This document shows positions 12,231-38,448 of a DNA stretch of 64,000 bases, piece after piece (the first letter of the stretch is position 1; every line of letters starts with the position of its first letter). The translations under genes were made by a program, and so were the position numbers. The notes under the pieces are model-generated. The model was not told the origin of the DNA and searched no databases. It was given only the letters and a program-made list of their open reading frames with translations. The DNA comes from Candidatus Bathyarchaeia archaeon (GTDB lineage: Bacteria; Patescibacteriota; Microgenomatia; PFEM01; JAFGMK01), in assembly GCA_035529595.1 (NCBI GenBank), contig DATKWK010000023.1:142961-206960 (forward strand), written 5' to 3'.

Positions 12231-13118
12231 ATGGGAAATATTCCTACAATAAGATTACTTTCAGGTAGAGAAATACCCAAATTAGGACTTGGGACTTGGG
12301 GTATTGGCGGAGGACCGACCAGGAACCAGAACAATGACGATAAAGGACAGATTAAAAGCATAAAGTATGCGATCGATAATGGTTTTACGTTTATTCGTAC
12401 CGCTCATAATTATGCAGAAGGCTATTGTGAGGAGTTAGTTGGAAAGGCAATTGAGGGTTATGCGCGTAAGAAACTATTCCTTGTTTCCTGTGCCAATCAA
12501 AAATTTGCGCTAGATAAGAAATCGATTATAGAAGTGGCGAAAGGCAGTTTAAAGAACTTAAAGATTGATTACTTTGACGTTTACCTAATTGGCGCTATTA
12601 ATCCGGAAACTTCTGTAAAATCAATTTTGGACGGCTTAGTTTATCTTAAAGAACATGGTTTGGCAAAGGACATCGGTGTTTCAAATTACAGATTGCCCGA
12701 ACTTAAGGCTTCGATTGAATATTTGGGCAAGAAAATTGTCTATAGTGAAATGCATTACAATCTTATTATCCGTGAACCAGAAATTGGCGGAACCTTAGAC
12801 TATTGTCAGCGAAAGGGAATTATTCTTAGCGCCTACCGACCATTGCAACTTGGTCAGCTTTCCAAACCCGGAATTGTGATTCTTGACCAGCTATCCAAAA
12901 AGTACAATAAATCCCAAGCTCAAATAGCTCTTAAGTGGTTGATCCAAAAAGAAGGAGTGATAACTATAACCAAGACAACAAATACCAAACATATCAGGGA
13001 AGATTTAGATGTTTTTGATTGGAATTTGGAAAAAGAGGATGTTGAGAAATTGGATAAAAATTTTCCAATTCAAGTACGCATCAGTGACTGTTCAGAGCCA
13101 AGACAGTTTAAATTTTAA
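12231..13118 (+). CDS. Aldo/keto reductase family oxidoreductase
   Basis: LGLGTWGIGG plus the AKR fold pattern (IDTAHNYAEG-like FIRTAHNYAEG). Confidence 0.8.
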   Translation: MGNIPTIRLLSGREIPKLGLGTWGIGGGPTRNQNNDDKGQIKSIKYAIDNGFTFIRTAHNYAEGYCEELVGKAIEGYARKKLFLVSCANQKFALDKKSIIEVAKGSLKNLKIDYFDVYLIGAINPETSVKSILDGLVYLKEHGLAKDIGVSNYRLPELKASIEYLGKKIVYSEMHYNLIIREPEIGGTLDYCQRKGIILSAYRPLQLGQLSKPGIVILDQLSKKYNKSQAQIALKWLIQKEGVITITKTTNTKHIREDLDVFDWNLEKEDVEKLDKNFPIQVRISDCSEPRQFKF

Positions 13119-13228
13119 TTTTATAGGTTATCGAAGGAAATAAATTAAATTTTACTTCATCATTCCGATTTAGCGGAAAACTAATGTATTAAGTGATTCA
13201 ATTCTTCTTTAAAAATTAAATTTACCCC

Positions 13229-13258
13229 TTGACAGGGTATATAAAAAGTATATACTTT
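13229..13258 (+). promoter_or_regulatory. Promoter/operator of the TA operon: TTGACA -35 (13229-13234) plus a perfect 14-bp palindrome AAAGTATATACTTT (13245-13258) over the -10 region
   Basis: The palindrome is seen directly in the sequence. RHH antitoxins autoregulate via palindromic operators. The ATG at 13265 implies a very short or leaderless 5' end. Confidence 0.5.
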
Positions 13259-13264
13259 CTATAT

Positions 13265-13555
13265 ATGAACACTGCAGTAATAAATATTAAGGTCGAGCCG
13301 AAATTAAAGGAAAAAGCGCAAGAAGTAGCGTCTGATTTGGGTTTTAGCCTAAGTTCCTTGATTAATGGTTATTTAAGGCAGTTAATAATTACTAAAACTA
13401 TTCATTTCAGTCTTCAGGATGAAGAGCCGAGCGAGTATTTAATTAAAGCGCTTCATGAATCTGAAGAACAAAGAAAAAGGGGACAGTTTAAGTCTTTTAA
13501 TAGCGCCGACGAAGCTCTGGGCTTTATCGATAAGATGATTGATGAAAAACGTTAG
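13265..13555 (+). CDS. Type II antitoxin, DinJ/RelB (ribbon-helix-helix) family
   Basis: MNTAVINIKVEPKLKEKAQEVASDLGFSLSSLINGYL is a DinJ-like RHH N-terminus. It overlaps the downstream toxin gene by 17 nt. Confidence 0.7.
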   Translation: MNTAVINIKVEPKLKEKAQEVASDLGFSLSSLINGYLRQLIITKTIHFSLQDEEPSEYLIKALHESEEQRKRGQFKSFNSADEALGFIDKMIDEKR

Positions 13556-13814
13556 AATTGATTATTCAAATCGGTTCATAAAATCCCTGAAAAAATCTCC
13601 TCGAAAAATAGAAATTGCTTTTAGAAGCCGGTTGGAATTGTATTTAACTGATCGGTACCATCCGTTACTGAATAATCATTCCTTAACGGGAAAGTATCAA
13701 GAATATCGAAGTATCAATGTTACTGGCGATTGGCGAGCCATTTTCCGAGAATTAAATGGGGGAGAAATAATCTATTTTGATTTTATTGGCACTCACAGCC
13801 AGTTATATAAGTAA
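13539..13814 (+). CDS. Type II toxin, YafQ/RelE family mRNA interferase
   Basis: The 91-aa protein has ...HPLLNNHSLTGKYQEYRSINVTGDWRAIFRE...IIYFDFIGTHSQLY, typical of YafQ/RelE. It is paired with the upstream DinJ-like gene. Confidence 0.7.
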   Translation: MMKNVRIDYSNRFIKSLKKSPRKIEIAFRSRLELYLTDRYHPLLNNHSLTGKYQEYRSINVTGDWRAIFRELNGGEIIYFDFIGTHSQLYK

Positions 13815-29216: not shown

Positions 29217-29903
29217 TTATCGGGAAAAGGCTGTGAAGATTTTGTCTAGATTGCCATCCAAGATTGTCTCCAGGTTGTACCACGATTTACCGAGGCGATG
29301 ATCAGTTACCCGGCTTTGCGGAAAATTATAGGTTCTTATTTTTTCGCAACGCATCCCGCGGCCGACAGCGGAGCGTCGTAAGTTAGTAAGTTGCGATTGT
29401 CTTTTTTCTTCTTCCTTTTCCCAGAGTTTAGCTCGGAGCAGCTCTAGAGCTATCTTTCGATTTTGCTCCTGAAGTCTCTCCCGTTCGCAGGTAACTACCA
29501 GTCCTGTTGGTTTATGAATTAACCTAACGGCGGTAGAGACTTTTTGCACATTTTGCCCGCCTTGGGAAGAAGCCCGGTAAAATTGCCAATCCAAATCAAT
29601 GTTATTAATTTTGATATCCGCTTCCGGAATGATCGGCAACACGGCTACGGTAGCAGTAGAGGTATGAATTCGTCCGTATCTTTCAGTGGCGGGAACCCGC
29701 TGGACTCGGTGGACACCGGCTTCGTGTTTAAGCAGGTTATAAACTTCCGGACCACTTATACGTAAAACTTGGTCGTTGATTAGATTTGTCTTCCAACCTG
29801 TCTTTTGGGCAAACTTTAAATACATGCGCAATAAGTCAGCAGCCCAAATTTTAGCTTCATCGCCACCAGCAGCGGCTCTAATTTCAATTAGACAATTGTT
29901 CAT
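29217..29903 (-). CDS. prfA: Peptide chain release factor 1 lacking N-terminal domain 1
   Basis: PAT tripeptide (RVQRVPATERYGRIHTS) identifies RF1. GGQ motif SSQGGQNVQK. The protein begins at the domain-2 start (IEIRAAAGGDEA). Only 13 nt separate it from the upstream rpmE stop. Confidence 0.8.
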   Translation of the reverse strand: MNNCLIEIRAAAGGDEAKIWAADLLRMYLKFAQKTGWKTNLINDQVLRISGPEVYNLLKHEAGVHRVQRVPATERYGRIHTSTATVAVLPIIPEADIKINNIDLDWQFYRASSQGGQNVQKVSTAVRLIHKPTGLVVTCERERLQEQNRKIALELLRAKLWEKEEEKRQSQLTNLRRSAVGRGMRCEKIRTYNFPQSRVTDHRLGKSWYNLETILDGNLDKIFTAFSR

Positions 29904-32578: not shown

Positions 32579-33700
32579 TTAATTTTGTACCATCTGCTCT
32601 ATTAAACGTCTAAAAATATTTTTGGTAATCCGGATGCTTTCTGTATCAACCCATTCGTCAACTGAATGGCCGAAACCCGTTGGTCCGAAACTAATCGCCG
32701 GCACATTCCAAGCTTGATAGATTAAAGCCGATTCATAAAAACCGCCCTTGCCTAAATCTTTTCTGAACTTGACCTTTTTAGAGATAGCTCTTGTAAACTT
32801 TATAAATTCTTTTAACGTACGCTTCTGGATTAGATAAGGTTGATAGTTTAATTTAATCTTTCTCTCGCTTAGAGTAGCCTTTCTTTCTTTGGCAATGGTT
32901 TCTATTTGATTAAGTACTTTTTCCGCCGAAGCTTTGGGATTAGCCGGTCTAATATCCAAGATAAATTTTGCTATATTTGGAACAGAATTAGATTGAACTT
33001 CTATACTTCCATTATTGTTCAAGCCACCATAAAGATAACCAAGATTAGCAGTTGTTTTTCCCAATTCTCGTAAATCGTTTTTCTTAATCTTGTTTTTTAG
33101 AATTTTAAAAATTTCTACTGCTTCGCAAACAGCATTGATTCCCGTTTCCGGTTGGGAGGCATGACTGCTTTTACCAAGAATGGTAAGCTCTATTTCTATT
33201 AAACCGCGGCAGCCGTTGGTGATTTCCAGATTAGTTGGTTCCGGACAAATAACCAGTTCTGGTTTTAAGAGGTAAGTAGATAATATTTTCTTAATGCCCT
33301 TGAAATAATATTCCTCATCGCAATCAAAAATTAGGGTCAGTCCTTTTGTTTTTTTTATTTCGGAAACAGCTGAAAGGAGAGAGGCAATTCCGGCCTTCAT
33401 ATCAGCTGCTCCTAGACCGTAAAGTTTGCCGTCTTTAATTATTGGCGTAAGCATGCTCTCTTTTTTTCCGGATGGCCTAATGGTATCCATGTGGCAAACA
33501 AAAACCACTTTGGCTGGCCAGCCGTCGGTGGCAATCAAGTTATATCTGTTATTTTCAACCTTTTGTCTTTTTATTTTTAGCCATGAACAATATTTCTCTA
33601 GAAATCGATAGAGCCATTTTTGGATTGCCTGCTCATTGGTTTCTTCATTAACATACGATGGGATTCGGACTAGTTCTTGGGTAATCTTTATTTCATTCAT
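32579..33700 (-). CDS. M20-family metallopeptidase/deacylase (ArgE/DapE-like)
   Basis: VFVCHMDTI (metal-binding His/Asp) and GAADMKAGIASLL. Its ATG overlaps the stop of the upstream gene (ATGAATGA). Confidence 0.75.
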   Translation of the reverse strand: MNEIKITQELVRIPSYVNEETNEQAIQKWLYRFLEKYCSWLKIKRQKVENNRYNLIATDGWPAKVVFVCHMDTIRPSGKKESMLTPIIKDGKLYGLGAADMKAGIASLLSAVSEIKKTKGLTLIFDCDEEYYFKGIKKILSTYLLKPELVICPEPTNLEITNGCRGLIEIELTILGKSSHASQPETGINAVCEAVEIFKILKNKIKKNDLRELGKTTANLGYLYGGLNNNGSIEVQSNSVPNIAKFILDIRPANPKASAEKVLNQIETIAKERKATLSERKIKLNYQPYLIQKRTLKEFIKFTRAISKKVKFRKDLGKGGFYESALIYQAWNVPAISFGPTGFGHSVDEWVDTESIRITKNIFRRLIEQMVQN

Positions 33701-35180
33701 TTTGCTTCCTGGCGGCTAATAATTGTCCGGGCGAAAAGGGAATCTCGGGATAAGCCTCCCATTCATTTAATAAGGTCAAAAGAAGCTTTCCTGTTAGTTG
33801 ATGAGTAATAACCAAGGTTTGGTCAAGATCGGTTTCGCTTATAAATGAGACCAACCGAGACCTTATTTCTTCCCAGCTTTCTCCGCTTCCTCCATATCTT
33901 AGAGTGGGGTCGGATCTCATTTGTTTGATAGTTTGAATTCGTTCAGGAAGATTTTCTGGCCTCCGATTCCATTCTCCTTCAGCGGCGTCTTTTAGTCTTT
34001 TGTCTCTCCTGATTGTTACTCTCAACTGCTCGGCAATGATTTCGGACATTTCCCGAGTCCTTCTAAAAGGAGAGGTAATAATTTGCCTTACCCTGTAACC
34101 TGCTTGTTTGATTTCTGTGGCAGCTGCTATTGCCTGAGTTTTTCCGGTTTCGGTTAGTCCTTGACCAGGAGAGTAAGAATCAACTAAACCTAGAACATTT
34201 GCCTGGCTTTGACCATGTCTTAATATTAAGCATTCAGGTGTAGTCTTGATTTCTTGAGAAGGATTTAGCTCGATGGTCATTTTTCTGGCAATAATCTTAT
34301 CAAGTGAAGTTAGAGCAGTCGGAACTTCGCTTACAAAAATAGCCCGGTAGTCTTTTTCTGGATCGAAAAGAGGATTAAAATAAGTGGCAATTTTGATTGT
34401 TCCTCCAAGGGCAGTTTGAGGATTATCATCTATCCCGGCAAAAAGAGGCCAATTTTTGGCTTCCCTAACCACGCGAGTGGCAACAAAATCACAGCCCTTT
34501 TGTTGGCAAGCTTGAAAAAATTCTCTCATCAGTAAGAGTCCCAAACTCTTTCCTTGCCAATCTTGGGCAACGCCGACGCCGTCATAATAGGCGCATTTTC
34601 CTGGTAAATTCACCACAAGTTCTTGACCTTCTTTGGTCAGTTCAAACCGGTCGTTTTGATCAGTGCCTACGACACCAGGGGCAAACTTATTTCTGATTAG
34701 ACTCTCCATCCCGTTTTCGGCCTCCAGGCCATAGCCAATAGCGTAACCGATTAGATCAGAAAAAGGCTGGAGAGAAAGTGGGTTGGCCAAAAGAATGAAA
34801 ATCCGGTCAGGTGGTGGCTGATTGATACTCAGATATCTAGTCACTTCGTCGGCGACTACTGCGGAGGTATACCTGGCTGATTTATCTTTTAATTGATTTA
34901 AACGGTTATAAGGTGGAGATTCTTGAAAGAGGGGAATAAGAAGCTGAGCGCCGTAGTTGGTGATTAGTCGTTGAATCAGGGGGTTATCTGTGTCTGTAGG
35001 AAAGAAAACCCCGTCGGTTAATCGATAAACTTCCATAGGTAATATCCCACCCCGTTGAGTACGGGCATTTAACTCAAGCCGGCAGTTTCCAATTCTGGTT
35101 TCCAAGGAGAGATTGGCTATTTTATCTCTTTCTTCTGCTGACACCTTAGCTCCTTTCGATGGAATCAACGATCGTGGCAT
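33693..35180 (-). CDS. Fusion protein: GNAT-like acetyltransferase region plus C-terminal histidine-phosphatase (PGM-family) domain
   Basis: QGKSLGLLLMREFFQACQQKGCDFVATRV (GNAT motif A-like Q/RxxGxG/A). C-terminal ILRHGQSQAN, ITSPFRRTREMSE and VITHQL (RHG / second His of the histidine phosphatase fold). Confidence 0.5.
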   Translation of the reverse strand: MPRSLIPSKGAKVSAEERDKIANLSLETRIGNCRLELNARTQRGGILPMEVYRLTDGVFFPTDTDNPLIQRLITNYGAQLLIPLFQESPPYNRLNQLKDKSARYTSAVVADEVTRYLSINQPPPDRIFILLANPLSLQPFSDLIGYAIGYGLEAENGMESLIRNKFAPGVVGTDQNDRFELTKEGQELVVNLPGKCAYYDGVGVAQDWQGKSLGLLLMREFFQACQQKGCDFVATRVVREAKNWPLFAGIDDNPQTALGGTIKIATYFNPLFDPEKDYRAIFVSEVPTALTSLDKIIARKMTIELNPSQEIKTTPECLILRHGQSQANVLGLVDSYSPGQGLTETGKTQAIAAATEIKQAGYRVRQIITSPFRRTREMSEIIAEQLRVTIRRDKRLKDAAEGEWNRRPENLPERIQTIKQMRSDPTLRYGGSGESWEEIRSRLVSFISETDLDQTLVITHQLTGKLLLTLLNEWEAYPEIPFSPGQLLAARKQNE

Positions 35181-36369
35181 AGCAATTAAATTTCTCCAAC
35201 ATTAGTTTAGTTATTTGAACCATTTTTTGAGCGATTTTTTTCTGTTTTTTTTTATCTTGGCTGAACTCGATAAGCTTTGAGATATAGAAAGGATCATCGT
35301 AGGCAATCGGAAAACAGGTTCCTAGCTTTTGGGCTTGTTCAAGACCCTGATCTTCGTTCATGAAGCCTGTTGGAACGATACTGGTGACAAAAGGTTTAGC
35401 GATAAGATATAACTCCGCACTATTATCACACAGGCTAGCTCGGCAAATGTTGATATCAGCGGCCTTTTTTAAAAGGAGATCAATCTCAAGATCAACAAAA
35501 GGGGAGGGGCGACTGAAAGCCCTCACTTTTTGGCATTGGTCCAAAACCGGCTGGGCCATTTTTTGAACTCCTTCAAGCATATAGACGAGACTTTTACCTT
35601 TAAAATTTGTTTCTAGGCCAGCGATCAATCGGGTGATAAAGCTTAAAGTTTGTCCTTGGCCTTTGCTAGAAAGAAAGCCGTTTTGACTCCGACCGTATTC
35701 GTCTTGATAGTTGCGATTATTGGGACAAATATTGAAAGGGTTAACGTACTCATCGTTAATGTTAAGAAAGACTAAAAGATCGTATTGAAGATTTTTTATT
35801 TCGGGATAGTAGGGAAATAGTTTTTGACGAGCTTTTTTAATTGACATTTTTCTAATTTCCTTAACTGTTTTGAGTTGTCGTTGAGGATAAGGCTGAGCGC
35901 AGACCGCAATATTGCTCATCTCTTTGACTTTAGAATATTTAAGAGGGAAAGGAGTAAGGATGATATAAGAATTGGCTTTTTGGTAGACTTCGCCGATGTA
36001 GCGGCTGGGGAATTTTTCGAAGCTTAAAGGAGTGGAATATTCGCAAATAGCATAGGGAATTCCTTTTCTGAAGGCATAATAAGAGCCGTAGGTTCTGGGG
36101 CTAAAAGAGATCAAGTAATCAAAACTAATTTGAGAAAGGATTTTTTCGCACTTTAGATAAATTGCTTGATCTGATTCGGCTGGTTTTCTTTGAATGACAA
36201 GATTGGGTCTCAAGTTGAGGTCATTTAGTTTATACATATAGAGAGATTCGGAGGCAATGATTGGTTGATAACCGGACTCCTTTAAGCCCTGATAGAGCCA
36301 GAAAATAGTTTTTGAACTGCCGCGGCCACCCACAAAACCAGTAAAAAAGAGAATTTTTTTCTTGTTCAT
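35146..36369 (-). CDS. GT-B-fold glycosyltransferase-like protein (MGT/MurG-like pattern)
   Basis: N-terminal ILFFTGFVGGRGSS and C-terminal PFVTSIVPTGFMNEDQGLEQAQKLGTCF resemble the GT1/GT28 donor-binding region. Confidence 0.4.
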   Translation of the reverse strand: MNKKKILFFTGFVGGRGSSKTIFWLYQGLKESGYQPIIASESLYMYKLNDLNLRPNLVIQRKPAESDQAIYLKCEKILSQISFDYLISFSPRTYGSYYAFRKGIPYAICEYSTPLSFEKFPSRYIGEVYQKANSYIILTPFPLKYSKVKEMSNIAVCAQPYPQRQLKTVKEIRKMSIKKARQKLFPYYPEIKNLQYDLLVFLNINDEYVNPFNICPNNRNYQDEYGRSQNGFLSSKGQGQTLSFITRLIAGLETNFKGKSLVYMLEGVQKMAQPVLDQCQKVRAFSRPSPFVDLEIDLLLKKAADINICRASLCDNSAELYLIAKPFVTSIVPTGFMNEDQGLEQAQKLGTCFPIAYDDPFYISKLIEFSQDKKKQKKIAQKMVQITKLMLEKFNCYATIVDSIERS

Positions 36370-37916
36370 CTTTCTCCTTTTGTGTTGAAACCAGCTAAAT
36401 AATTTAAAACGTTAAAAAAGTTTCTTCCTGGATCTTGGTAGGTCATTTGAAAAATTTCACTAGCTTTCTGGCAGGATTGGCGAGCATATCTCGGATCCTG
36501 GATCATCCAGGCGATCACTTTAGCTAGAAGTGGAGGAGGGTCATTATAGCGGAAATTCCATTGAGTGGAAAATTCGTTGATGACTGAATCAATCGTATCT
36601 ACACCCATGTAACCAAACCCAGGAATAGTAAATAAAATTTGGGGAATGTCTGGAAGAATGGCCACTTCAGCTGAAGCGTTGGTTTCGGAGGTGCGGTTAA
36701 TAATTAATTGGCTTAGTTTATAAACAGCCAGGAGAACTGTTTGGGGAAGTTCAGGTTTGGGAACAATTAATATCCCTGACGTGGTTGGGTTTTGGTCAGG
36801 AGTAAATACCCCTTCGATTTTTTTTGATAATAGAAATTCAATAGCTTCGGCAGGTAAGACCAAGTTAATGGACCGACCAATTTGTCTTGAGGCCTCCAGG
36901 ACCCCCAGGGCTAAAGTCTGGGTGCCGGCCAGAATGCTTTGGAATTGCTCTGGGGTTAACCATTTACCGACGTTTTCTTGATTCCAATAATCGCCACAGG
37001 CAGGGCAAACAACATTAGGATTGCCATTGCTCAAGATATCAAGGCCGTAGGCTTGGATTAGTCTTCTCGCCTCTGAGACAGTAAGACCTTTATAGAAGTC
37101 TTGAAGTCGCTGAATGTAATCAGGGGTGAAGTTTTGAGCAACCGTTAGGCGTTTGAGCCCTGGGTAGGCTTGGAGACGATCGGCCTCGGCCGTAGGGGGA
37201 CATGGTAGCCAGTTGACACAAGCGGCAAAGGTTTCCAAGCCTTGATTGGGCAGGCCGGCATAGGCAGGGGGAAAGAATCGATCAAGAGGACGGCCGTTGA
37301 TATCTAAGTTCCAAGAGGGATTATCATAGTCGGGGACACAGCTGTCTTGATAGACAAATCTTCCTGCAAGCTCTGGACAGTTAAGTTCACGCTTAATTCT
37401 TAAAATTGCCTTTGCAGCTGCGAGGGGTGATTGGGCGGTATAGCCAGTGGCCAGATAGAAAATACGCTCAATTTTTTGCTCTGCCAGTTGTTTGGTGGCT
37501 TGATAAACAGCTGTCTCGATTGGTTGGAAACTAGCGGGGATTGAATTATCAGTCGGTTCTCCGATTTCTATATTAGGGGTAGTTACCAGATAGCCGGTAA
37601 GTTCTGGAACGACAAAACGAGGAACCGTTAAACTTCTTGAAACTCTTAAAAGAGGGATCATCTGGATTTGGGCGGTTTGCTCGGCCCAAGCGGAATTATT
37701 TATTGCCCAGGTAGTTGGTCCACCACCGGCACAAGTGGCTGGATTTATTTCAACAATTGCCTGAGCTGGTTTTCCGCGGATGCCTCTAGGGTATTGGCCT
37801 TCGGCAATGTCGTTAGGATTAATTAACTCTGGCCGAGGACACTGCTTGCTTGCTGCATAGTCAATAATCTCTCTAATTTCTCTTACTTGTTCATTATTTG
37901 GTAGTCTTTCGGTCAT
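36366..37916 (-). CDS. Hypothetical 516-aa protein, first gene of the G/C-richer cassette
   Basis: No recognisable motif apart from a CPACGDYW Cys pair. It overlaps the next gene by 4 nt. Confidence 0.45.
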   Translation of the reverse strand: MTERLPNNEQVREIREIIDYAASKQCPRPELINPNDIAEGQYPRGIRGKPAQAIVEINPATCAGGGPTTWAINNSAWAEQTAQIQMIPLLRVSRSLTVPRFVVPELTGYLVTTPNIEIGEPTDNSIPASFQPIETAVYQATKQLAEQKIERIFYLATGYTAQSPLAAAKAILRIKRELNCPELAGRFVYQDSCVPDYDNPSWNLDINGRPLDRFFPPAYAGLPNQGLETFAACVNWLPCPPTAEADRLQAYPGLKRLTVAQNFTPDYIQRLQDFYKGLTVSEARRLIQAYGLDILSNGNPNVVCPACGDYWNQENVGKWLTPEQFQSILAGTQTLALGVLEASRQIGRSINLVLPAEAIEFLLSKKIEGVFTPDQNPTTSGILIVPKPELPQTVLLAVYKLSQLIINRTSETNASAEVAILPDIPQILFTIPGFGYMGVDTIDSVINEFSTQWNFRYNDPPPLLAKVIAWMIQDPRYARQSCQKASEIFQMTYQDPGRNFFNVLNYLAGFNTKGER

Positions 37917-37957
37917 ATTTTTCCTTTCTGATCGGCAGTTGAAATTTTTTAACCATT

Positions 37958-37980
37958 AAAAAACCCCGCCTAAAGCGGGG
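37958..37980 (-). terminator. Rho-independent terminator (minus strand): CCCCGC-ctaaa-GCGGGG stem followed by U6
   Basis: Hairpin 37964-37980 with an A6 tract (plus strand) at 37958-37963. It is part of a larger three-hairpin dyad region (37958..38040) between the YerC-like gene and the cassette. Confidence 0.6.
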
Positions 37981-38142
37981 TAAAGAACAGACTTCAAGGT
38001 TTTTTATTACCAAAAACCTTTACCCCGCTTGGCGGGGTGATGATGATTGGCTGGGTTAATGTTATTCATTTTCATATTCAATTTAAAACATGTTACCGTA
38101 GTAATACGATACTATATCACAAAAAATAAATTTGTCAATAGA

Positions 38143-38448
38143 TCATTTTTTAGAAGAATCAGAAAGACGGTTGAGGATTAGTTTGTAACCTCCCAAGCCA
38201 TGCCTAAGCCAATGAGCCACCCGGGTAACCGTAGTAGTTGAAACTTTACAATGTTTGGCGATTTTTTCATAAGAAAACTTCCTTTGGTGTAAAAGTTTAG
38301 CGATTTGAAATCGGGAAGAAGAATCGTCAATTTCTTTAATGGTTAAAAGATCCCGAAAAAAAAGACAGGCTTCGCTTAAATTTTTCAAATTTAAGATTGC
38401 CTCAAATAATTCTTTCGTTTCTTTTGAAGGATAGCGTTTTTCTTTCAC
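38143..38448 (-). CDS. TrpR-like YerC/YecD-family DNA-binding protein
   Basis: The 101-aa protein has ...YEKIAKHCKVSTTTVTRVAHWLRHG, the HTH of the YerC/YecD family. Confidence 0.6.
   Translation of the reverse strand: MKEKRYPSKETKELFEAILNLKNLSEACLFFRDLLTIKEIDDSSSRFQIAKLLHQRKFSYEKIAKHCKVSTTTVTRVAHWLRHGLGGYKLILNRLSDSSKK

Follow-up and report, generated by a model that had tools for sequence, protein, structure and literature searches.

The stretch analysed here, hereafter the window, comprises 64,000 nucleotides (nt) of contig DATKWK010000023.1 (positions 142,961 to 206,960) and contains a cassette of four closely packed minus-strand open reading frames (ORFs), designated P1 to P4, at the coordinates given in an earlier note on this DNA, which had proposed them as a candidate glycoconjugate or small-molecule pathway. 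We found the cassette to be an operon conserved in a few Patescibacteria of the candidate phyla radiation (CPR), in which the gene order is conserved together with the genes. It encodes two proteins, P1 and P2, that are paralogues of one unclassified family with a predicted GT-B fold, followed by an acyltransferase of the GNAT type carrying a histidine-phosphatase domain (P3) and by an M20 deacylase (P4). The positions of these genes, of the domains of P3 and of the upstream elements are listed in Table 1. No defence system was matched by PADLOC.

Table 1. Features of the P1-P4 cassette and of the region upstream from it (positions in the window)
Feature	Position	Strand	Description
P1	36366-37916	-	516 amino acids (aa); divergent, predicted GT-B-fold glycosyltransferase-like protein, unclassified family
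P2	35146-36369	-	407 aa; paralogue of P1, same unclassified, predicted GT-B family
P3 ORF, long start	33693-35180	-	495 aa; GNAT + His_Phos_1
P3 N-terminal GNAT module	34250-35144	-	~300 aa; atypical GNAT-fold acyltransferase; PF00583
Histidine-phosphatase (branch 1) domain in P3	33732-34249	-	in-frame indel; PF00300
P3 C-terminal tail	33693-33731	-	common to homologues lacking the phosphatase; 8-nt overlap with the P4 start
P4	32579-33700	-	373 aa; M20 (ArgE/DapE-type) metallo-amidohydrolase + dimerisation domain
Promoter-like element	38111-38138	-	TTGACA, 16-nt spacer, TG-extended TATAGT
Structured leader or terminator region	37958-38038	-	three hairpins + T-run
Hairpin 1	38038-38022	-	stem ACCCCGC/GCGGGGT, 7 bp
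Middle hairpin, AT-rich	38020-37996	-	AAGGTTTTT/AAAAACCTT
Hairpin 2	37981-37963	-	7-bp stem identical to that of hairpin 1; then T-run to 37958

All four genes had been described as joined by overlapping stops and starts. This was found to be the case for the P1/P2 junction (a 4-nt overlap, ATGA, preceded by the ribosome-binding site AAAGGAG) and for the P3/P4 junction (an 8-nt overlap), but probably not for the junction between P2 and P3. These two genes are probably 1 nt apart, and their 35-nt overlap an artefact of start choice, because of the two candidate starts of P3, ATG 35180 and GTG 35144, the latter has the better ribosome-binding site (AAGGAG), is the start in the NCBI model of P3 (483 aa) and agrees with the start of an 83%-identical homologue.

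P1 has no family recognisable at the sequence level, as the earlier note had stated. Searches of Pfam and NCBIfam yielded no match for P1 or P2, and Pfam gave no glycosyltransferase (GT) match among 30 members of the family. In a word-indexed search of 5.8 billion proteins, P1 itself was the sole match; when 1.84 billion cluster representatives were scanned exhaustively with HMMER, 46 relatives were identified (46 clusters at 50% identity), 10 of them with E values below 1e-30 and all with identities of 34% or less. The (near-)invariant positions of the family are G158-Y159, D191-S-x-x-P195-D196, G208-x-P210-x-x-R213-F214, R247, W319-M320, R408...N413 and P432...Y436-M437 (P1 numbering). The structure predicted for P1 by AlphaFold2 from the family alignment (predicted local distance difference test, pLDDT, 94.4; predicted template modelling score, pTM, 0.93; the single-sequence run gave a pLDDT of 36) consists of two Rossmann-like beta/alpha/beta domains with a cleft between them, the arrangement that defines the GT-B fold. 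The structural matches listed for this model were BshA (20.5), PglH/WlaC (19.0), PimA (18.8), WaaG and LmbT (18.1 each), sucrose-phosphate synthase (SPS; 17.5), TreT (17.4), MurG (15.9) and the uridine diphosphate (UDP)-GlcNAc 2-epimerases (about 15), all of them at 8-12% identity; OtsA and GlgM were also among the structural neighbours, together with SPS and TreT. In the C-domain, the segment R408-T-S-E-T-N413...E417...P432-G-F-G-Y-M is similar to nucleotide-sugar motifs found in MurG and EarP (profile E values of 0.08-0.22), and one family member gave a weak match to Glyco_tran_28_C (0.004) over this nucleotide-sugar segment.

The profile of the P2 family aligned end-to-end with that of P1 (hhalign 98.7%, E value 2.3e-16, 378 columns), which places P2, previously noted as GT-B-like, in the same predicted GT-B family. 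P1 is therefore not a separate, unknown enzyme, as the earlier note had it, but a second predicted GT-B protein paralogous to P2, and the two belong to a single unclassified family outside Pfam and NCBIfam. Seven homologues of P2 were found, all on contigs of Patescibacteria type, and a scan with the P2 alignment recovered 4 GTDB species only. The motifs of P2 include an N-terminal glycine loop (TGFVGGRGSSK) and, in the C-domain, C-R310-A-S...D-N316 and P333-T-G-F-M-N-E-D; the C-domain motifs of the family are thus kept, and the acidic motif of the N-domain has diverged. The P1/P2 family is a new and rare family inside a known fold class, the GT-B fold, and the cassette is not a categorically new system. 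Neither P1 nor the fusion protein P3 belongs to a housekeeping family.

P1 and P2 might adopt a GT-B fold and yet not be transferases, acting instead as nucleotide-sugar 2-epimerases or hydrolases of the NeuC/PseG kind that feed the GNAT enzyme, in the manner of PseG and PseH, which carry out steps of the pathway for pseudaminic (nonulosonic) acid. The best Foldseek matches of P1 were UDP-sugar 2-epimerases, and the position of a GT-B gene directly before a GNAT gene mirrors the PseG-PseH arrangement. However, NCBIfam gave no PseH, PseG or NeuC match, and the flanking genes scanned included no dehydratase, aminotransferase or synthase gene, so we consider this explanation improbable.

Genes resembling P1 and P2 were neighbours, either adjacent or one gene apart, in nine distinct Patescibacteria loci: the window, L001-3/L008 (one species), L004, L005, L007, L009, L010, L015 and L018. 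The pairing held in every locus in which it could be judged, always with both genes inside the cassette, including L009, from Gottesmanbacteria, and L018, in which the two genes are divergently transcribed. A GNAT gene of the P3 type followed a P2-like gene in six loci, and an M20 gene directly followed the GNAT gene in all five loci with that end on the contig (the window, L005, L006, L007 and L012). The GNAT proteins of these GNAT-M20 loci are 27-83% identical to that of the window (28-59% in L005, L006 and L007), and orthologues of P4 with 43-50% identity lie directly after the GNAT gene in L005 and L006, as does an M20 gene in L007 and L012. Of the conditions under which the earlier note would have had its proposal fail, most were decided in its favour, and the genes are indeed co-conserved in other genomes.

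The loci fell into two classes. In class A, the order is P1, P2, GNAT, (phosphatase), M20, as in the window, L005, L006, L007 and L015. L012 also belongs to class A; its contig begins inside the gene upstream of GNAT, and no P1-like gene is visible. The DNA of L012 is 86% identical to that of the window across the GNAT gene and 78% identical across the M20 gene and hisS. Two further coupled genes precede P1 in one class-A lineage (L005:35-1572 and L015:1225-2770; 68-71% identical between the contigs) and are absent from the window; they encode a 160-aa protein weakly resembling the transglutaminase core and a 360-aa protein weakly resembling DUF2332. In class B (L001-4 and L008-10), the order is hexokinase, P1, (GalT), P2, GalT, IMPase-type phosphatase and GalE-like epimerase, with extra GT4 genes; the IMPase was seen in L001-3/8 and L009. 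None of the class-B partners of L001 and L009 used as tblastn queries (hexokinase, GalT, GalE/epimerase, IMPase, GT1 and cupin) had a match in the window. In L009, a homologue of the RuBisCO large subunit (12347-13735) lies two genes from the class-B cassette, beside the GalE-like epimerase and NAD synthase. The sugar-related pathway suggested by the earlier note is plausible, given the predicted GT-B fold of P1 and P2 and the association of the pair with hexokinase, GalT, GalE and IMPase elsewhere.

Among more distant relatives, a P1-like gene in L016 lies beside genes for a HAD hydrolase and a methyltransferase, and an unrelated small GNAT gene adjoins P1-like genes in L017 and L018. In L017 (1777-7366), a P1-like gene (27% identity) with no visible P2 partner is located between the small GNAT and an alpha/beta-hydrolase, with a gene for an aromatic-amino-acid ammonia-lyase/aminomutase upstream and an ADP-ribosylglycohydrolase gene downstream, and this stretch looks like a small-molecule tailoring cluster. 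The contexts of the distant P1 relatives P0021, P0028 and P0032 are on short, uninformative contigs, and a metagenome scan with the GNAT alignment added one further locus. The themes that recur around the family are acyl transfer by GNAT proteins, a hydrolase and a phosphatase whose fold varies, with Leloir-type sugar-nucleotide enzymes in one lineage; the phosphatases are of three unrelated folds, namely histidine phosphatase (window, L006), IMPase (L001-3/8, L009) and HAD hydrolase (L016).

The identification of P4 as an M20 deacylase was confirmed: both the catalytic domain (PF01546, 76 bits) and the dimerisation domain (PF07687, 56 bits) were found, with the metal and catalytic residues H70-x-D72, D100, E129-E130, E154 and H345. 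It scored below every NCBIfam equivalog cut-off (best 144 versus 217.6), those of DapE and ArgE included. It is conceivable that the four genes share no pathway, in that a compact CPR genome packs unrelated genes together and the M20 enzyme is a housekeeping protein of the DapE/ArgE type, transcribed with hisS. Gene overlaps are common in small genomes, hisS follows the M20 gene both in the window and in L012, and the codon usage of P4 is typical, unlike that of P1-P3 (see below). However, the M20 gene directly follows GNAT in five of the five evaluable loci, three of which have GNAT proteins only 28-59% identical to that of the window, and the scores of P4 below all DapE and ArgE equivalog cut-offs likewise argue against this explanation, to which we attach very little weight.

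The fusion of a GNAT and a histidine-phosphatase domain in P3, which had been singled out as unusual, was recovered with both of its domains. The GNAT match is weak (PF00583, E value 6.6e-5, 23.6 bits versus a cut-off of 20.7, residues 189-235), and only about 50 residues of the ~300-aa module match the family; the module has an N-terminal extension of about 185 aa, and the acetyl-CoA loop of motif A is present as Q209-G-K-S-L-G214 (Q-G-K-G-L-G in relatives). Stand-alone GNAT homologues of 269-314 aa are encoded in L005, L006, L007, L012 and L015. The phosphatase match is stronger (PF00300, 4.5e-22, 79 bits, residues 318-474), and the catalytic set of branch 1 is intact (R321-H322-G323, R373/R374, E401/E403 and H460). 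The closest solved relatives of this domain are fructose (Fru)-2,6-bisphosphatase and the glucosyl-3-phosphoglycerate phosphatase GpgP (4.7e-8 to 2e-5).

The fusion is not, however, a conserved feature of the cassette. The 518 nt at 34249-33732 in the window correspond to 14 nt in L012, a clean in-frame indel of 504 nt with the whole phosphatase domain inside it, and the C-terminal tail is kept on both sides of the comparison (PGQLLAARKQNE in the window versus PGQQLAVRRKNE in L012). The domain is absent from L005, L007 and L012, with a similar tail in L007, and it is absent or degenerate in four of five related class-A loci. No other GNAT-phosphatase fusion was identified among the close relatives, the scope of this search. 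The phosphatase of P3 thus appears to be an accessory, lineage-specific addition, since the 504-nt indel is absent from L012, the 86%-identical relative, and parsimony favours its insertion in the lineage of the window. In L006, a gene for a 291-aa protein (2071-2946) lies between GNAT and M20; its first ~70 residues resemble the N-terminus of M20 (30% identity) and the remainder is a histidine-phosphatase domain without the catalytic RHG. This gene has the appearance of a remnant, either chimeric or degenerate.

The phosphatases bear directly on a further explanation, a synthase-phosphatase route to a disaccharide or compatible solute, in which, along the lines of OtsA/OtsB, SPS/SPP or GpgS/GpgP, P1/P2 would couple a UDP-hexose to a sugar-phosphate or glycerate-phosphate and the phosphatase would free the glycoside. 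In the class-B loci, a hexokinase would provide a hexose-6-phosphate acceptor and GalT and GalE would provide the UDP-hexose, and a phosphatase of the IMPase type is also encoded; a HAD phosphatase lies beside a distant relative of P1; the nearest solved relatives of the P3 phosphatase act on sugar phosphates; and the structural neighbours of P1 include OtsA, SPS, TreT and GlgM. However, the phosphatase is missing from L005, L007 and L012 and lacks RHG in L006, pathways of this type make no use of GNAT or M20 enzymes, and the family carries no sequence signature of GT20, GT4 or GT81. We therefore consider a route of this kind unlikely.

The same optional phosphatase and the Leloir context of class B do not fit a pathway for a low-molecular-weight thiol of the bacillithiol or mycothiol type, the analogy drawn in the earlier note. 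The enzyme set does formally span a GT, a phosphatase, a deacetylase and an acetyltransferase. Nevertheless, the identity of P1 to BshA is 8%, with a small Z margin over generic GT4 enzymes, the deacylase is an M20 enzyme rather than an LmbE enzyme (PF02585), and a scan of the cassette and of 10 flanking genes revealed no Cys-ligase (BshC/MshC). The analogy was thus not upheld, and a thiol product seems to us most improbable. Membership of P1-P4 in the PseH, PseG, NeuC, BshA and MshA families was likewise rejected, as there was no NCBIfam or Pfam match.

The three upstream genes had been described as richer in G+C than their surroundings and proposed to have been acquired horizontally. The window has a G+C content of 40.3% (per-gene mean 0.408, standard deviation 0.034), and P1 (0.453, z 1.3) and P3 (0.436, z 0.8) are modestly richer, but P2 (0.387), like P4 (0.371), falls below the mean of the genes of the window. 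The G+C content at third codon positions (GC3) is average in all four genes (z -1.05 to 0.18). The raised G+C of P1 and P3 is confined to codon positions 1 and 2 and thus reflects amino-acid composition, with more Pro (6.9% versus 3.9%), Gln (6.3% versus 3.6%) and Ala and less Lys. Of the three codons reported as enriched, GCC is so (0.50 of Ala codons versus 0.31 elsewhere), but CGG and CAG make up smaller synonymous fractions than in the other genes. Horizontal acquisition as judged by G+C was therefore rejected, GC3 being average.

A resampling test of synonymous usage, controlled for length and amino-acid content, nonetheless ranked P1, P2 and P3 as first, fifth and sixth most atypical of 58 genes (z 6.9, 4.5 and 4.5), with P4 typical (z 0.2); three unrelated long genes scored about as atypical as P1-P3. 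P1-P3 thus show a moderate codon-usage signal and no G+C island. In L012, the P2 position is occupied by a different paralogue of the family (L012:1-1047, ~24% identical, hhalign 98.6%) that is not an orthologue of P2, and the DNA similarity to the window begins at 35154, within ~10 nt of the probable GNAT start at GTG 35144. These comparisons indicate a cassette-like replacement of genes at the locus, which fits the codon-usage signal better than the argument from G+C does.

Surface-glycan loci typically show this kind of swap of paralogues along with atypical codon usage, and P1/P2 could be peripheral GT-B enzymes of envelope or protein glycosylation, working on a lipid-linked precursor, a wall polymer, a pilin or an S-layer, with GNAT and M20 modifying the sugar. 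The structural matches to PglH, PimA, WaaG, HepE and MurG are just as good, and the class-B loci contain additional GT4 genes and GalE. However, no flippase, polymerase, polyprenyl-phosphate transferase or any other membrane protein is encoded within or adjoining the cassette, the neighbours of which in the window are housekeeping genes (10 flanking genes scanned), and the four proteins are soluble, as no transmembrane or signal segment was found in P1, P2, P3 or P4. We regard a role in envelope glycosylation as quite unlikely.

Taken together, these results are most consistent with cytoplasmic glycosyl transfer by P1/P2 to a small acceptor, combined with GNAT, M20 and phosphatase steps, a general model to which we assign a probability of about 0.55, far above that of any particular product. 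P1 and P2 would work jointly, perhaps in a heteromer of a catalytic subunit and an acceptor-binding or regulatory subunit. A nucleotide sugar would donate its hexose or aminohexose to a small acceptor that is probably phosphorylated or carries an amine. The phosphatase would take the phosphate off, and GNAT and M20 would add and remove an N-acyl group, for protection and deprotection or for acyl exchange. This would yield a soluble glycoside or a modified sugar precursor. We infer the donor, the acceptor, the order of the steps and the formation of a heteromer from the following. The GalT, GalE and hexokinase of class B suggest UDP-Glc or UDP-Gal as the donor; the GNAT and M20 enzymes of class A suggest an aminosugar substrate and, as a pair, an N-acyl protection/deprotection or acyl-exchange step; the phosphatases, by analogy with OtsA/OtsB, SPS/SPP, GpgS/GpgP and MshA/MshA2, suggest a phosphorylated acceptor or product; and the paired paralogues hint at a heteromer whose subunits divide the labour, on the model of GtfA/GtfB or the TPS complex.

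Several points weigh against this model. The GT-B fold is also found in epimerases, hydrolases and phosphorylases, the top Foldseek matches of P1 are the UDP-sugar 2-epimerases mentioned above, and the P1/P2 family has neither the EX7E signature of GT4 nor a Pfam GT match. Close relatives do without the phosphatase, which means that the acceptor need not be phosphorylated. P4, given its typical codon usage unlike that of P1-P3, could be a housekeeping deacylase with no functional tie to its neighbours, and the conservation of the cassette rests on about 10 loci, most of them on short contigs. A more specific version of the model, in which P1/P2 constitute a new GT-B family at the level of CAZy, active as an obligate two-paralogue enzyme, and make with GNAT and M20 (and here the phosphatase) a hitherto unknown small glycoside specific to CPR, is possible but doubtful. 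Such a glycoside could be an aminosugar or amino-acid conjugate serving as a compatible solute, a redox buffer or a signalling or host-interaction molecule.

Upstream from P1, the region that had been described as a strong multi-hairpin terminator contains three hairpins and a T-run (Table 1), a pattern unique in the window, with 0 expected by chance. The 196-nt upstream region folds far better than shuffled sequences (minimum free energy -55 kcal/mol, z -4.26), and a search of the leader against Rfam yielded no family, only sub-threshold small-RNA noise. The hairpins are real, but the insulation of the cassette that was attributed to them is uncertain: the T-run ends just 41 nt before the start codon of P1, a canonical promoter would not fit in this interval, and the sole good promoter-like site lies upstream of the hairpins. 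This site matches the consensus at 11 of 12 positions, with the TG present, and is located 5 nt past the stop of a TrpR-like gene (38143-38448); promoter-like sites across the region were not enriched relative to shuffled sequences, so it is a candidate only. As the stems of hairpins 1 and 2 are identical, the 3' arm of the former can pair with the 5' arm of the latter, in a geometry resembling that of an attenuator. The hairpins may serve either to terminate the TrpR-like gene or as a portion of the leader of the cassette itself.

The NCBI source label of the assembly, 'Candidatus Bathyarchaeia archaeon', is probably wrong, through mis-binning or mis-assignment. The window encodes proteins of bacterial type, namely L31 and DnaB (both recognised from the ORF sequences), an RF-1/PCRF release factor, HisS and the TrpR-like protein, and all homologues of the cassette come from metagenome-assembled genomes of Patescibacteria, Gottesmanbacteria or Saccharibacteria. 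The release-factor-like ORF (29217-29903, minus strand, 228 aa) starts 13 nt after the L31 gene, and its match is limited to the final 95 positions of the PCRF domain plus RF-1. The ORF could represent a factor that is truncated or PrfH-like, or could result from a mis-called start or a frameshift.

The genomes of CPR/Patescibacteria are tiny, few biosynthetic pathways can be recognised in them and, to our knowledge, almost nothing is known of the small molecules or glycans of these bacteria. No paper on the P1/P2 family or the cassette was found in the literature. The cassette, with its conserved gene order and translational coupling, constitutes a concrete, testable unit, with a confident structural model of P1, invariant motifs and UDP-Glc, UDP-Gal and UDP-HexNAc as candidate donors. 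If P1/P2 are active, the outcome would be a further family of glycosyltransferases and perhaps a metabolite not known before; if they prove ordinary, the gain would be one of annotation, with two hypothetical proteins becoming GT-B-fold paralogues and a phosphatase fusion becoming a lineage-specific indel.

The known enzymes with which the cassette can be compared share parts of it. The retaining GT-B enzymes of GT4 (BshA, MshA, PimA, WaaG, SPS and TreT) have the fold predicted for P1, with 8-12% identity, but P1 has no match to PF00534 or PF13692, the helix consensus of the P1/P2 family is R-T-x-x-Q-A-N-A rather than EX7E, and the P1 family adds N-domain motifs of its own (GY, DSxxPD, GxPxxRF) and ~100-150 extra residues; it therefore falls outside GT4. 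The sole similarity found for the P1 family at the level of sequence is to the inverting enzymes MurG (GT28) and EarP (GT104), with which the C-domain segment 'aDl-I-R-T-(G)-x-x-N...P...P' aligns; it is sub-significant (E values of 0.08-0.22) and limited to the nucleotide-sugar region of the C-domain, and at the level of sequence the family falls outside GT28 as well. GpgP and Fru-2,6-bisphosphatase share the RHG, Arg, Glu and His residues of the P3 phosphatase, which differs from them in being inserted in a GNAT protein, in its low identity and in NCBIfam scores far below the cut-offs. The OtsA/OtsB and SPS/SPP systems differ from the cassette loci, in which there is no GT20 or GT4 match and no obligatory phosphatase, and the bacillithiol and mycothiol pathways differ in both their LmbE-type deacetylase and their Cys-ligase. 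The acetylate-then-deacetylate logic of ArgA and ArgE resembles the cassette in that a GNAT enzyme and an M20 enzyme of the ArgE/DapE family are encoded together; however, P4 scores below the ArgE/DapE cut-offs, the GNAT module of P3 has its ~185-aa extension and no similarity to ArgA, and no other gene of the arginine or lysine pathways is present. In streptococcal GtfA-GtfB and yeast Tps1/Tps2/Tsl1, GT-B paralogues are paired, one being catalytic and the other substrate-binding or regulatory, and the yeast TPS complex also contains a phosphatase. P1 and P2 resemble these systems in that two paralogues occur together, by analogy only and with no sequence relationship, and differ from them in that both proteins keep the C-domain motifs, so that both could be active.

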